From Octopus vulgaris (taxonomy: Eukaryota): DNA of 64,000 nt. The notes beneath the pieces are model-generated. The model saw nothing but the letters and a program-made list of their open reading frames with translations, made no database searches and had not been told where the DNA came from. Positions within the stretch are counted from its first letter, which is position 1, and each line of letters starts with the position of its first letter. This document shows, in pieces, positions 2,131-62,390 of the stretch. Both the position numbers and the translations under genes were made by a program. The stretch is from the NCBI GenBank assembly GCA_951406725.2, contig OX597829.1:46872001-46936000 (forward strand). Direction: 5' to 3'.

Positions 2131-2428
2131 TATATAATATTAATTCGAGACAAAACCACTATTTTGCAATATAAAACAGATTAGGAGATCGAAAATCCAC
2201 CTGACGAATGTCATTGAAGACATGAAACGATTGTAGTGGCGGTTTATTTCTTTATATTAAAATTTTTTATGTATTGATTAAGTCTTTCCTTGTTTGTTTT
2301 GCAAAATAGTGGTTTTGTCTCGAATTAATATTATATAATATTATATAATATTTTACTATAAAATTGGATTCAATCCTAAATCTGATTTTTTCCCTGTAAA
2401 TTTGGATTTATTCCCTAATATTTATTAT
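2131..2428 (+). mobile_element. Penelope-like element end (inverted pLTR segment + hammerhead + unpaired tail) in (TA)n
   Basis: Perfect 39-bp inverted repeat 2131-2169/2299-2337, hammerhead in the spacer, ~90-nt tail, (TA)n on both sides. Confidence 0.7.
2197..2239 (+). ncRNA. Type I hammerhead ribozyme motif (minimal)
   Basis: CCAC-CTGACGA-ATGTC(attgaa)GACAT-GAAA-C(gatt)G-TA-GTGG: stem I CCAC/GTGG, perfect 5-bp stem II, complete core, GUA cleavage site after 2235. Confidence 0.8.
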
Positions 2429-3235
2429 TATATATATATATATATATATATATATATATATATATATATATATATACAAGGCTCCAATTATTATTGGTAC
2501 TGTTTTTACTTTCCTGTCTCACACACTATTTATTTGCGTATACACGCTAATATCTTTGCAATTTGATCATTTCTTCACTTTCTTCTCGCTAATGATATTC
2601 TCAAAAGCAATCAACAATCCCTAACAGCGTGCACAGTTTTTGTTCCCAGTCTTGCAGGATGAGATACAGAGAGTTTTCTTTGACTTCCTTGCCAGATTGC
2701 GCAGATACTTCCCAGTTGACAGTGGCGCTGTCCTTTTCATGTATCGCGTTTATTTCATTTTTTCTTGTCTGATTTTGCTTCAAATCGTCAGCATATTACA
2801 GAGGAGAACGCACACGGCGATTTTATCGTGTCGAATTATATATACTCTAACTTAATAAGAACTAAAATGTGATGTAATCAGCATTCTCAGTGTACTGATT
2901 AATAGTCTACACTAAAGATTAATATATTCAATTTTCTAATGTTTTGTAAACTTTTCCTTTTTTTTCTTTTTGTAGTTAAGCGTTCGCTGTAAATCCAAAA
3001 TCAAAACTATTTTCTTTTCTTTTCTTTTTTGTCCATATATTTTTGAGCTAAAGAGAAATGCACTCTACATTCTAAAATATAAACGGGTCATTGTTTGATA
3101 TACAAATGGACACAATAGCCATGCTCAGAGCGCTTATCAGCAATCTATAGTACAAAGGTCCTCAACTTCAATAATTCCTAGAAATGCAGATTCGATATCT
3201 CTGGTGATTCAAAGAATCCTAAAGCTCTTGGTGTG

Positions 3236-3740
3236 GTGGGGTGGGGTGGTAAGAAGCTTGCTTCCCAACCATAAAGTTCAAGGTTCAATCTCACTGTGTT
3301 GCTCTCTGTGAAAATGTCACCCATAATCTCGGTTTGACCAAAGCCTTGTGAGTGGATTTGGTAAATGAAAACTGAAAGAAGCCCGTCGTATATATATACT
3401 TTTTTACACGTTTCAGTCACTTGACTGCGGCCATGCTGGAGAACCCCTTTAGTCGAAGAAATCGACCCCACGATTTATTCTTTGTAAGTCTGTTTCTTAT
3501 TCTATCAGACATGTGTATATGTGAGTCTTTGTGTCTTTTTGTCCACCACCACAACCGCTTGACAAAGGATTTACGTCCCTGCAACCTAGCGGTCGTTTAT
3601 GTCCCTGTAACTTAGCGGTCGATTGGACAAAAAAAATGATAAAGTACCAGGGTTTTAAAAATATAAATACCCGGGTTGATACATTTGCCAAATATTCTTT
3701 AAGGTGGTGGCCCAGCATGACCACAGGTAACAGATAAAAC
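3236..3740. mobile_element. Older family A SINE (+) interrupted by a family A 3' fragment (-) at ~3400-3510
   Basis: + strand head and core 3236-3390; inverted tail segment GTTTCAGTCACTTGACTGCGGCCATGCTGG; + strand tail resumes ~3510-3740. Confidence 0.7.
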
Positions 3741-4247
3741 TCAGGTAAATTTGGTCTTATTTATTTATCTATTTTATATAATTTCATGAATTCTATGATA
3801 TTGCAATGATATCGTAAAGAGAAACAAAAGCGCCAATAAAATTCCATGCGTTCAAGGTTCAGGTAATTAAGGCGATTTTGCTATCGGTTCTTTTTCAAAA
3901 GTATTGAAGTCCTTATGACGATTGCCAAATCCGAAATATCAAAAACTAACGGTGAAACGGTAGAAGATTTCGTTTTCCTTCTTCATTCAAGCCTAACGCA
4001 AATTGCTATTCCGTTAATCAATACCATCAAGAAAATGACTCGATTCCAGTTAATTGATCTTCTGCCGTTCAGTGAATAATGTTCAATTTGGGCATATATA
4101 AAGCATCGCTTGCTTTTATTTAAAACGAAACTCTCTCTCACACACACACACACACACACACACACACACACACACACACACACACACACACACACACACA
4201 CGCACACACACACAGAGGCAGACACACACACGCAGACACTCGCTCGC

Positions 4248-4504
4248 AGACACTCGCACGCAGACACACACTCTTATATATGTATGCTCACATACACGCA
4301 CGTATGTATGTATAAACATATACATATATAGACATATATAAGCATATTCTCTCACACACATACGCACACACACACACACATGTAGACACTCGCACGCAGA
4401 CATACACACATATATATATGTATATTCACATACACGCACATATGTATATATAAACATATACATATATAGACATACATAAAAATATTCTCTCACACACATA
4501 CGCA
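4248..4504. repeat. Diverged ~136-bp tandem duplication of CA/TA-rich sequence
   Basis: AGACACTCGCACGCAGACA...TATAAACATATACATATATAGACAT...ATATTCTCTCACACACATACGCA occurs at ~4248 and ~4384. Confidence 0.7.
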
Positions 4505-4581
4505 TACAAACACACACACAGAATATATATATATATATATATATATATATATATATATATATATATATATATATATATATA

Positions 4582-59544: not shown

Positions 59545-59940
59545 TTTCTTAAATGTGTTCTATAGATTTGATACAAAGGTATTAAACTATAATGTATGCT
59601 TGAATGTAAATGTATAACTTTTAATAACTTAATATATGGGTATATGGCGCATTTTTTAAAGATTTTCGTCAAATAATAAAATCCCGAAGACGAACTAAAC
59701 TTCGATATCTTTAAGAATATTTTTGCTTATATAGTTTCACGCTACTTCTCTATTTCAATCATTTGGATAATCGCCACTGATTTCGCAAAATTGGTTGAGC
59801 AGTCTGTTATTGAAGCTGCAGTTGAACAATTGCAAATAACATACTTATGAAACTTGTAGTACCGTACTAACAGCAATCAACATTTAATATACAGTACACA
59901 CACACACACATATATTTATATATATGTATATATATATATA

Positions 59941-60430
59941 TTCTTTTACTCTTTTATTCTTTTATTAGTTTTGCTCATTTGACTGCAGCCATGCTATCGC
60001 ACTGTCTTCATGGATTTTAGTAAAAAAATATCGGCAACAGGGCTAATTTTTAAAGCCTATTCTATCGGTTCTTTTTGCCGAACTTCTAAGATATGGGAAC
60101 GTAAATGCACCAACACCGGTTGTCTATCGGTGATGGGGACAAATACAGACACACAGACACATACACACACGGACACACACACACACACACACACTCACTC
60201 TCACACACACATATATATATATACATATATATATGTATGTATATGTATGTATATATATGTATATATATATATATATATATATATATACATATACATATAT
60301 ATATATATATATATATATATATATATATATATATATATATATACATATATATATATATATATATATATATATATATATATATATATATAGACAGATTATT
60401 TCAGTTTCCGTCTACCAAATTCACTCACAA
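59941..60430 (-). mobile_element. Diverged family A SINE, 5'-truncated, with expanded (TA)n
   Basis: Tail and core homology. Confidence 0.8.
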
Positions 60431-60699
60431 ATCTTCGCTCTGCCCGAGGAATGGACTGTTCAAACATTTTAAACATTTTTCATTATACTCAATGCATTCA
60501 GATCTATAAAAATAAGAGAATTGCCACTATTATTGAAACGGTAGTTGGATAATTGCAATATATCATCTGCATGAAACCATCGGTAACGTAATAACATCAC
60601 TCAATATTTAAAAGAAACTTTCATTCACGAATACTGTGTTGGTTACTGGCTCGCTATATACGTGCATAAAAATATGCGTGTTTTTTTTTAAATATGTAC

Positions 60700-61500
60700 A
60701 TCATTATCATCATCTCCACTCTCATAATGGTTTGGCTGCGACTTGCCAATATGGGATAGGCATAACTGCCAGCAGAAACCGCAAGAGAAATACTGTACTG
60801 GGTTTACTGCTGGTGTACCATAGTTCTTCTTTCTTCTTATTTTGTCTTAAGGATTTCTGTGTGCATTCCCGATGTAGAATAGGAACTGGTGTATGGAATG
60901 GTGTTAAATCTCACAATTGGGCGCTATAGTGAACCACTGATGATATTCAATATGAGAAAAGCCAAGGGGTTTCTTCTGGGTGGTCTTGTACCTTTTCTTA
61001 GGAGATGCTCTGTTAGGGTGGTCAAATGAGGGTTTGTCATACAACGCAATCTTGGACAGTGATGATTCTCTAACCCAGAGCATTCCAATATCTAATTCAG
61101 CTGCGATTTGAACAGTATGAACTCAATGTAAGTGTCTTTCACTATTTCATTTACCTCAATACTCAAATTTACACCAGCGGACATTAAGGATGGTGCGGGC
61201 TGCATTGCGCAAGGCGTCCTAACAGTTGTCTTTGTTCATGATGATTTTTATGCGTATCTCCGTGCGTGTTGTAGCCGTAGAGGTGTCAATTCTTGGGCTG
61301 AGAATGCATAGTTTATACTCAAGGTTCTATTTCTACTGGGTGGTTGTTTTTGGTGGCGGTGAATTCCTGATTCGCACAACCAACAGAAGGCACCTGCTGT
61401 CAGTACAATTCTTAGCAATAAATTTGCCAACATCTCTCCAGACCTTTGAATCTGGTGTTGCATTTGCCAAGCATAATGACGGGGGAGTGGAAGCGGTTGC
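60700..61500 (-). mobile_element. RTE-BovB-like LINE relic, internally deleted (AP endonuclease part joined to C-terminus)
   Basis: Reverse complement gives DSKVWRDVG..NCTDSRCLLL..MHSQPKN*HL (APE-like), then RTILNVRW..KIALY..PKKRYK..QW..FSCGFCWQLCLSHIG (C-terminal zinc finger); (GAT)n tail. Confidence 0.7.
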
Positions 61501-62260
61501 AATGTATATATATAGATATGTGTGTGTATACGTGTGTACGTGCGTGTGTGTATGTGTGCGCGTATGGGGGGGATGTGAGTAACTAATATATATATTACAT
61601 AAATATACACATATGTGTATACAAAACATAAACAATATATATATATATGCATGTATAGGTAGGTAGATTGGTAGATGCACACGCAATCACTCGTACGTAC
61701 ACATACATTCTTGACCAGATCATAGAAGGAAAAAAAAAACACCTCGTTCTATTTACAATAGACAAGATAATATTTACCTACTCCAAACTACTTACTCTGC
61801 CGGATCCTCTTATTTGCTTCTTATAATAATAATATAATGGCTTCTCTTTCTCTGGTGTTGCTAATTATATACGATTCTCGCGTTTTCATTGCTTCACAGA
61901 ATAGTTTATTCTTTTACAAGGTTGTTCAGCCTGACCTTCTGTTCGTTGACGTCGACATAGAAGACGTTGTCGCAGTTGTTTTAAACCCCAGGTCACCCTT
62001 TCCCTCAGCAGACCTTATTTACTATTAATAGCGCGATTGCATTTGTTCATTGTGTCCATTGTTTAAGACTAAAAATGCCGCATGCGTGGTTTTACTTAGG
62101 AAGCTTCCACGTTAACATGTTCTTAATGTAGGTACTGTCGTTTAGCCTGAGGTTAACCTTGATCGAATATATATATATATATATATATATATAGATGAAA
62201 GGCATTTCAGCTATGACAATGCGATAAATTTAAGTGTATATATATATACATACATACATG

Positions 62261-62390
62261 CAAAAATTCTATAATTATGCTTATAATTATAGAATTTTTG
62301 TATAAGGTTACCGATAATGGTTCTTTTAACATACCGAACTACTTGGTAAAATTATTAATTATTAATTGATTAAATTTAATTTTACCCTTT
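62261..62390 (+). mobile_element. PLE-like mini-end: 18-bp hairpin + ~90-nt tail ending TACCCT
   Basis: CAAAAATTCTATAATTAT-gctt-ATAATTATAGAATTTTTG; lies between TA/CATA and (TTA)n tracts. Confidence 0.45.

Follow-up and report, generated by a model that had tools for sequence, protein, structure and literature searches.

The window, a stretch of 64,000 nucleotides (64 kb) of Octopus vulgaris DNA, contains five complete type I hammerhead motifs at four loci: A (core at 2201, forward strand), B (4672, forward, with a mirror motif at 4648 on the reverse strand), G (41457, forward) and H (57333, reverse). All five share one layout, in which stem I is followed by CTGANGA, stem II, GAAA, a palindromic stem III insert and GUA, and each carries the perfect CUGANGA and GAAA boxes and the NUH triplet (GUA) of a type I hammerhead. 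Stem I is 3–6 bp and stem II 2–5 bp long, the latter with a mismatch at its base in B and H, and the open end lies in stem I at all four loci, which is the type I topology.

2136..2428, forward: element A, with an inverted tail-less 5' arm, a hammerhead and a tail of ~90 nt
2197..2239, forward: complete hammerhead A, 4-bp stem I, core 2201, 5-bp stem II, palindromic stem III; 31.6 bits
after 2235, forward: predicted cut of A (descriptor)
4582..4810, forward: element B, with an inverted tail-less arm (4582–4658), a direct arm (4663–4738) and an optional tail (~4743–4810)
4615..4652, reverse: mirror of hammerhead B, carried by the inverted arm, with its core at 4648 and a predicted cut after 4619; 29.5 bits
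4668..4705, forward: complete hammerhead B, core 4672, predicted cut after 4701; 26.7 bits
41451..41521, forward: complete hammerhead G, with a stem I of 6 bp, a long stem II and a palindromic stem III; 28.0 bits
after 41515, forward: predicted cut of G (core 41457)
57227..57481, reverse: element H, with a complete hammerhead at 57260–57337; 33.7 bits
57333, reverse: core of H, with a loop II of 42 nt; cut predicted after 57264 (descriptor and log-odds scan)

A perfect-core descriptor gave five matches in the 64-kb window, against means of 0.05 in whole-window and 0.017 in 500-nt-block dinucleotide shuffles (60 of each kind, highest count in one shuffle 1). Likewise, a log-odds scan gave five matches of at least 25 bits, where 189 block shuffles averaged 0.005 per window. 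A sequence-only reading of this DNA had claimed complete cores at 2197 and 4669 (forward; mirror 4616, reverse), 41451 (forward) and 57260 (reverse); descriptor and shuffles bear these out, the comparison which that reading had proposed amounting to five matches against 0.02–0.05 per shuffled window. The notion that the motifs arise by chance in AT-rich, microsatellite-rich DNA has next to no probability as a general account and is ruled out for A, B, G, H and a further family, K: besides the excess of complete motifs, family B is multicopy, and a scan scored for a G3–C8 core pair gave two K matches of at least 25 bits in the window against none in 93 shuffles. The weak candidates described below (E, F and J), whose scores lie inside the shuffle range, are accounted for by chance.

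Rfam, which the earlier reading had named as a check, gave no match at the gathering threshold across the whole window, and the best 150 of 361 rows listed by E-value were all driven by microsatellites or hairpins. In a local scan of four regions, only A matched Hammerhead_1 (RF00163), aligned over the full length of the model with every pair standard but scoring 10.8 bits where the cut-off is 34, a sub-gathering score being expected of minimal variants. The B, G and K regions had no Hammerhead_1 match at E ≤ 10, and standard annotation thus overlooks them. As the class is already known, the main result is one of annotation, namely several abundant hammerhead-bearing repeat families overlooked by Rfam.

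Element B and its family

Element B sits between TA tracts at 4523–4580 and 4811–4834, and its arms are 97% identical. Stem II of its hammerhead has 2 bp capped by a GCAA loop; at 10.1/11.1 the usual G10.1–C11.1 pair is absent and A.A is mismatched instead.

Copy number beyond the window was measured for family B alone. Contigs from four sequencing runs matched B in large numbers (6166, 3735, 1662 and 490 contigs), and 65–88% of the words of B were present in 20 of the 24 runs listed, which represent 10 studies and four organism labels. In 4/4 runs, the loose ends past 4743 run on into (TA)n, and there are further contigs that match B over 4731–4820 only; the tail is therefore optional across the family in these contigs. 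No head-to-tail joint was found among those listed for B in the four runs, and exact or near-exact B patterns had no match in viral or in metagenome contigs. With thousands of variants, the family is well suited to studying covariation in a ribozyme whose stem II has 2 bp, and also to mapping the tail and target rules of Penelope-like elements (PLEs).

Complete motifs might be active ribozymes that cut host transcripts, as monomers or trans-dimers, and so shape RNA processing. Four complete cores occur, on both strands, and the B core (4672–4701) has no listed variant at or above 4% across thousands of contigs, against eight listed in the downstream flank; moreover, the very high copy number of B makes trans-dimers conceivable. 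However, the variant contrast (0/30 against 8/~109 positions) is not significant, the motifs in the window belong to unlike families and occur singly, and host exons were not identified there. A 157-nt hairpin (−125 kcal/mol) encloses the two B motifs, one on each strand, and would lock B, and the hammerhead was the minimum free energy (MFE) fold in 0/4 complete motifs. Furthermore, published minimal hammerheads (min-HHR) of metazoans show no cleavage as monomers and are slow as dimers (PMC4209133), and the PLE hammerhead of Anolis requires the PLE protein, RNA-seq read ends at its site not having been found (PMC11167929). Activity on host transcripts is consequently very improbable, and the earlier suggestion that these motifs could cut any host transcript crossing the region is not upheld.

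Decayed relatives and family K

Further hammerhead-like features are of uneven quality.

12893..13120, reverse: element C, decayed minimal hammerhead at 12992–13028, ending in (TA)5; same family as D
24380..24644, forward: element D, related to C but more decayed, with its motif at ~24493–24530, ending in (TG)n
24997..25031, forward: candidate E, both core boxes and palindromic stem III; 15.7 bits
26662..26839, forward: element K1, hammerhead-shaped motif at 26667–26713; 27.4 bits
28808..28944, forward: element K2, motif at 28813–28859; 29.0 bits; runs straight into the TA tract 28945–29008
41103..41181, forward: candidate F, G-like 3' half with a broken 5' core
58340..58570, reverse: element I, decayed relative of the 3' part and tail of A, ending in (TAC)n

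Element C retains a 5-bp stem I and an intact GAAA-C-G-U-A with two core substitutions, and its 16.5 bits (core 13023, reverse) are not significant alone, since shuffles yield 0.9 matches per window at ≥16 bits and 3 at ≥14 bits. C and D are nonetheless homologous (75% identity over 56 nt, z ~10.6), as are I and the 3' part of A (z 5.9–6.6), I keeping only the GAAA half of the motif, with the 5' core absent. Candidate E has GCC at the cleavage triplet, no stem I and a score within chance, F is within chance in its likeness to G (z 1.2), and J (62167–62390) is without support and also within chance. No degenerate candidate passed the descriptor, even with one core mismatch allowed.

About nine motifs had been claimed for the window. 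Those at 12994 (reverse), 24496 (forward) and 58550 (reverse) stand by homology, whereas those at 24997 and 41103 (both forward) fall within chance, as does the stretch 62167–62390. The stems had been called mostly unrelated, and those of the four complete loci A, B, G and H indeed are (z < 1 in pairwise comparison). The claimed density of one self-cleavage motif per 7 kb is too generous because it counts decayed motifs without catalytic residues: complete loci occur once per 16 kb (95% CI 6–59 kb; one window), and a figure of about one per 6–7 kb is reached only when decayed relatives and K are included.

Family K was missed by the sequence-only reading. Its copies are 81% identical over 137 nt and form a tailed and tail-less pair, K1 having ~42 extra, tail-like nt ahead of (TC)n/(TA)n. 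The C3–G8 core pair is absent: both copies have G3, with U8 in K1 and C8 in K2, and in K2 A4 replaces U4. GAAA and a palindromic stem III are present in both copies, G10.1–C11.1 is kept, and stems I and II (5 bp each in K1, where the triplet ends in C at 26708) form in the MFE fold. G3–C8 and G3.U8 ancestors would each need two changes, two copies being compared, and from the sequence of these copies the core may be a G3–C8 swap. A report of a natural G3–C8 hammerhead core was not found in the literature. A third match of the G3–C8-scored scan (21104, reverse, 24.6 bits) was rejected, being without GAAA and located in the GC-rich coding sequence of a LINE, and none of 23 matches to the G3–C8 pattern in viral contigs was hammerhead-shaped on inspection. 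A search for further K copies through spurious reading frames across K gave no candidate; three matches among cluster representatives were long, internally repetitive proteins and were judged to be chance.

Because CUGANGA-based searches do not see a G3–C8 core, some ‘hammerhead-less’ PLE families may hide hammerheads. Should the K core hold and cut, it would add a natural core variant, and descriptor searches would undercount PLE ribozymes. We put forward tentatively, as a proposal that may well fail, that K is a TA-targeting PLE family whose master carries a working G3–C8 hammerhead invisible to CUGANGA searches, in an octopod genome that may hold on the order of 100,000 intact cores, ~10x the published vertebrate density.

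Probable Penelope-like parentage

The window holds at least five unrelated short dispersed families built around a type I hammerhead, which are likely 5'-truncated 3' ends (pseudo-LTRs) of PLEs, with a probability of roughly 0.7. Most of these repeats end in a microsatellite, and all the hammerheads have a palindromic stem III. Self-duplexes of stem III are predicted at −5.8 (A), −7.4 (B), −11.4 (G) and −7.0 (H) kcal/mol, with the monomer hairpin absent, in line with the PLE min-HHR consensus (PMC4209133). A and B each combine an inverted tail-less 5' arm with a tailed direct arm, the arrangement drawn for PLEs (PMC8557442); in A, the arm at ~2136–2175 mirrors 2293–2330 and the flanks are TA tracts (2094–2135 and 2429–2476). 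The inverted-repeat-plus-tail architecture described earlier is clear at these two loci and nowhere else, G having no clear inverted arm and neither an inverted 5' copy nor a one-end tail being seen for G or H. Dispersed multicopy occurrence with a (TA)n or AT-rich bias holds genome-wide for B, and A/I, C/D and K are each represented twice in the window.

Downstream of 3/4 complete loci, and of 5/6 when K1 and K2 are included, a (TA)≥5 tract follows within 250 nt, against 21% of random positions (p = 0.002). The predicted cut sites of A, B, H and K lie 38–194 nt upstream of the 3' microsatellite, H running into the TA tract 57181–57226 38 nt past its cut. The adjacency to TA tracts previously noted is thus accurate for most complete loci; the exceptions are G, which adjoins no long TA tract (nearest downstream (TA)≥5 tract 955 nt away), and the decayed D and I with their (TG)n and (TAC)n ends.

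In the likely mechanism, a PLE RT/GIY-YIG protein would nick AT-rich or (TA)n DNA and reverse transcription would be primed at one of two internal RNA sites, giving tailed and tail-less ends; two RT start sites have been invoked to explain the PLE tail (PMC11167929). Synthesis would stop early, often with an inverted second copy on the 5' side, so that only 150–300 nt including the ribozyme would be deposited. Where the parent transcript is tandem, the palindromic stem III may let two hammerheads pair and then cut, presumably at a slow rate and with protein assistance, and in solitary copies the motifs would mostly be inert passengers in decay (C, D, I). Known PLE insertions (Neptune, Poseidon, Naiad and Hydra; PMC8557442, PMC11167929) share 5' truncation, an inverted 5' copy, a one-end tail and (TA)n or AT-rich targets, but the elements here have no ORF and their tails measure ~42–90 nt (A ~90, B ~70, both longer) against the published 30–40 nt. 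As Naiads lack canonical hammerheads, A, B, G and H are not Naiads.

Pfam, applied to the 300 longest of 432 ORFs (≥40 aa), returned only LINE RT and zf-RVT above or near cut-off and no PLE coding sequence, and a Neptune-type HMM and tblastn found nothing in the window (best E 0.5). The best named relative of the window LINE RT is from Argonauta hians (63%). An RT plus GIY-YIG ORF is absent beside the repeats, as expected of truncated copies. A short frame upstream of H, which we took to resemble an endonuclease C-terminus, had no HMM support. With no PLE ORF in the window, the linkage of families to ORFs is inferred. A motif pattern designed from C/D found 45 loci in metagenome contigs, stem I forming in 24/45; five of the 45 showed PLE-protein similarity on the hammerhead strand, two of them strongly; in these two the upstream ORF ends at a distance of 190 and 676 nt. 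The C/D-type motif thus occurs downstream of Neptune-like RT+GIY-YIG ORFs in contigs of other animals. BLASTN showed no similarity between window elements and these loci at E ≤ 0.01, so the ORF link is one of motif type, and a G-type pattern gave 14 matches in viral contigs, none with the stems of G. The PLE assignment made earlier therefore gains from the anatomy, directly for B and indirectly through the C/D motif type, and falls short of joining any family to its own ORF.

The elements might instead be short, non-autonomous derivatives of PLEs, 150–400 nt long and resembling solo retrozymes or SINEs, whose transcripts would cleave themselves, perhaps circularise, and be mobilised in trans by PLE proteins. 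Every element is short and ORF-less, B is extremely abundant with coverage dropping steeply just 5' of its hammerhead, and 490 of its contigs come from a run guessed to be RNA. Animal non-LTR retrozymes are likewise short, non-coding type I hammerhead units that stem from PLE pLTRs and can be monomeric (PMC7229834; bioRxiv 10.64898/2026.07.22.740005). However, two differences in the window copy explain part of the coverage drop as an edge effect, and the short loose-end consensus upstream of B (agreement 0.52–0.59) fits a truncated long or a short non-autonomous element alike. The 490-contig run is only guessed to be RNA, contigs cannot reveal RNA ends or expression, and no run on record as RNA carries B among those listed. 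Moreover, tandem units that each contain a ribozyme are what defines a retrozyme, whereas inverted arms and tails are present here: among the window rows and B joints listed there are no head-to-tail hammerhead units, circular junctions or hammerheads within a tandem array, and 48354–56500 holds no candidate. We consider such derivatives unlikely and favour truncated pseudo-LTRs.

Minimal type I hammerheads (min-HHR) of metazoan PLEs are reportedly also the subject of work by Lunse et al. in RNA Biol. The class is already known, and the window families are new members of it. They share with the min-HHR that metazoan PLE pLTRs carry (Cervera and de la Pena, 2014; PMC4209133) the type I topology, a short stem I, a palindromic, self-pairing stem III as in the PLE consensus, an extra nucleotide after position 9, and the occurrence of many unrelated families per genome, mostly as single copies, with opposite-strand pairs 100–700 bp apart. 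They differ in stem III inserts of 4–7 nt, the long loop II insertions of G and H, the 2-bp stem II of B with A.A at its base, and the G3 of K without G8, the only core covariation in that paper being U3–A8; the window families are not among the rows compared from that paper. Our literature search found no paper describing these families in this lineage, and ‘hammerhead’ and ‘ribozyme’ are absent from the main text of a 2026 O. vulgaris repeat paper. The complete-core density of 1/16 kb, from one window and with a different descriptor, exceeds that implied by ~9,000 per Xenopus genome (PMC4209133), and 31 Penelope-like families with recent activity are known from O. vulgaris (PMC13282606).

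Complete and degenerate hammerhead motifs

The window was searched with a type I hammerhead descriptor that required intact CTGANGA and GAAA boxes, an NUH triplet, at least 3 bp in stem I, at least 2 bp in stem II and a palindromic stem III insert; it returned five motifs at four loci: A (core 2201+), B (4672+, with a mirror copy at 4648-), G (41457+) and H (57333-). This count far exceeds the means of 0.05 in 60 whole-window shuffles and 0.017 in 60 block shuffles, bearing out the complete cores named in the sequence-only reading. Permitting one core mismatch gained no real match in the window and raised the shuffle mean to 0.7. 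The same five motifs took the top ranks of a log-odds scan (26.7–33.7 bits), with 0.005 matches per window at 25 bits or more in 189 shuffles. Rfam gave zero matches at threshold on the window and, among four regions scanned, a weak Hammerhead_1 match in A alone.

The degenerate motifs proposed alongside these cores fared unevenly. Candidates C (12994-, core 13023-) and D (24496+) are members of one family by sequence comparison, and I (58550-) is a decayed relative of the 3' part of A, lacking the 5' core. The scores of C (16.5 bits) and E (24997+, 15.7 bits) lie inside the shuffle range; D, F (41103+), I and J (62167–62390) are absent from the best 30 of the scan, the likeness of F to G reaches a z of only 1.2, and J found no support as a hammerhead motif.

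Instead of one self-cleavage motif per 7 kb, as had been estimated, complete loci come to one per 16 kb (95% CI 6–59 kb, from one window). The Xenopus genome measures 1.5 Gb. With about 9,000 hammerheads in X. tropicalis (PMC4209133, excerpt), this gives one per about 170 kb, sparser than the low-density end of our interval; the window's density therefore appears to be above that of Xenopus, tentatively, because a single window and a different descriptor are compared. Further counts are 235 Rfam hammerhead matches in giant squid (PMC6962438, excerpt) and about 5,000 hammerheads in mussel (PMC7229834, excerpt). The literature searched did not yield a paper describing hammerheads within repeats of octopus.

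Anatomy of the hammerhead-bearing elements

TA tracts flank both A and B. In each, the inverted 5' arm is tail-less and runs up to the TA tract, and the direct arm carries a tail, about 90 nt long in A and about 70 nt in B. Penelope-like elements (PLEs) likewise show an inverted 5' copy, a one-ended tail and a (TA)n bias (PMC8557442, excerpt), the tail being accounted for by two internal RT start sites (PMC11167929, excerpt); the class of hammerhead PLEs, its anatomy and its target bias are all previously published. Five of the six complete or K loci (K being the family described below) have a TA tract no more than 250 nt downstream, versus 21% by chance, the exception being G.

Contigs matching the direct arm of B (at least 6166, with 80% of that run read, 3735, 1662 and 490 in four runs) show that B is a large family, the measure being thousands of distinct contigs, as contig depth is not copy number. 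It was present in 20 of 24 listed runs (10 studies, four organism labels). In all four runs the loose ends past 4743 continue as (TA)n, and the tail is therefore optional family-wide. Many contigs match B only over its last 80–90 nt (4731–4820) and diverge upstream, which suggests several related families keeping a common 3' end or tail.

We consider it probable (about 0.72) that the hammerhead-bearing elements are truncated PLE 3' ends, which target-primed reverse transcription would have deposited into microsatellites; their hammerheads would have acted, if ever, as dimers within the parent tandem RNA and would be mostly passengers in the present copies. That they are instead short non-autonomous PLE derivatives seems rather unlikely: the tandem units that define retrozymes (PMC7229834; bioRxiv 10.64898/2026.07.22.740005; excerpts) are absent among the tandem repeats listed for the window and from the B contig joints listed in four runs, none of which is head-to-tail.

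A, B, G and H each have a self-complementary stem III strand, with a self-duplex energy of -5.8 to -11.4 kcal/mol and no monomer hairpin, which matches the dimer-type design reported for PLE minimal hammerheads (PMC4209133, excerpt). The MFE fold forms the hammerhead in none of the four. Stem II of B has two pairs only, with A.A where G10.1-C11.1 is expected, and among the variants listed in four runs none at 4% or more falls in its core (4672–4701), where coverage is lower and the contrast with the flanks is not significant. The suggestion that these motifs cut host transcripts is very improbable, being at odds with the inactivity of minimal hammerhead monomers and slowness of dimers (PMC4209133, excerpt), with the protein dependence and absent read ends of the Anolis PLE hammerhead (PMC11167929, excerpt) and with the -125 kcal/mol hairpin in which B sits.

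The log-odds scan also revealed family K, overlooked by the sequence-only reading, at 26672+ (K1, 26662–26839) and 28818+ (K2, 28808–28944), two copies that share 81% identity across 137 nt. Stems I and II are 5 bp long in each copy and form in the MFE fold. The two also share G10.1-C11.1, the additional nucleotide that follows position 9, GAAA and a palindromic stem III, and their predicted cut site reads UC or UU. K2 runs into a 64-bp TA tract and K1 has about 42 extra nt before the microsatellite; the pair is again tailed versus tail-less. G occupies position 3 in both; at position 8 K1 has U and K2 has C, K2 further has A at position 4, and neither has the G8 of the usual C3-G8 core pair. 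Under a G3-C8 model K1 and K2 score 27.4 and 29.0 bits, with no match of 25 bits or more in 93 shuffles. Two changes are needed from either ancestor, a G3-C8 or a G3.U8 master; on chemical grounds, a putative G3-C8 core swap is likely. C3G/G8C partially rescues activity in vitro (PMC11167929, excerpt), and the natural covariation described at this pair is U3-A8 (PMC3088659; PMC4209133; excerpts). Our literature search, with incomplete coverage of subscription papers and supplements, found no report of a natural G3-C8 hammerhead; Craig et al. (PMC8557442, excerpt) searched core strings starting CUGANGA and also relaxed cores. No further K copies were found among viral contigs, using the G3-C8 pattern, or protein cluster representatives.

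Relation to PLE coding sequences

Linkage to RT+GIY-YIG ORFs was not seen in the window, where Pfam (300 of 432 ORFs), tblastn and a Neptune-type HMM seeded from metagenome locus L040 found no PLE ORF. A C/D-type motif pattern retrieved 45 metagenome loci, with stem I formed in 24; some of the 45 resemble the Acropora Neptune hammerhead (PMC4209133 supplement, excerpt). Same-strand similarity to PLE proteins was found at five, weak at L058, L020 and L034 and strong at two:

L024 2079–3627, - strand, Neptune-type PLE ORF with minimal hammerhead downstream, animal-host contig in metagenome assembly
L040 808–1461, + strand, Neptune-type PLE ORF with minimal hammerhead downstream, animal-host contig in metagenome assembly

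Relatives of L040 carry RVT_1 and PF26215, with GIY-YIG in 2 of 26. The window elements share no DNA similarity with the 45 loci at E<=0.01, so the link to PLE ORFs holds for the motif type and not for the window's families. In O. vulgaris, 31 Penelope-like families have been active recently (PMC13282606, excerpt). Separately, 10 of 14 viral contig loci (L001–L006, L009–L012) carry a recurrent motif whose two hammerhead boxes are spaced at 37 nt.

Other repeats in the window

The window has a GC content of 36%, is 27% microsatellite-masked and contains 79 (TA)5-or-longer tracts. Pfam, run on the 300 longest of 432 ORFs, detected no protein families other than those of a broken LINE RT with its zinc finger (20052–21395). 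The LINE copies are:

19625–21722, - strand, broken Tx1/L1-like LINE (RVT_1, zf-RVT; Pfam)
8897–9554, + strand, second LINE fragment, 77% identical to the first

The best named relative of the RT comes from Argonauta hians, an octopod (63%), with three unnamed or 'hypothetical' proteins scoring above it. Fragments at 62557–62838 (-), 43890–44020 (-), 26952–27230 and 38965–39231, which we take to resemble the C-terminus of a restriction-like-endonuclease non-LTR element, are microsatellite-interrupted and have no Pfam match. SINE-like families, presumably resembling octopus SINEs, are abundant (17852–18371 and about 14 further sites, e.g. 55–452, 27805–28202 and 33093–33477), with up to 14 copies inside the window, and one forms a 251-bp tandem dimer. 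Together with the RT relative, this likeness makes an octopod host likely. At 15189–15293, 23-bp perfect inverted arms without a hammerhead begin right at a TA tract; this could be a further PLE-type inverted end or a small MITE. Short dispersed repeats at 45524–45588, 59146–59211, 35557–35605 and 43696–43744 occur in two copies each (88–95% identical). Long low-complexity GGT/GCT and GAG/GAT tracts at 41822–42505 (+) and 45929–46664 give Gly/Ala-rich and acidic open frames, and are probably microsatellite.
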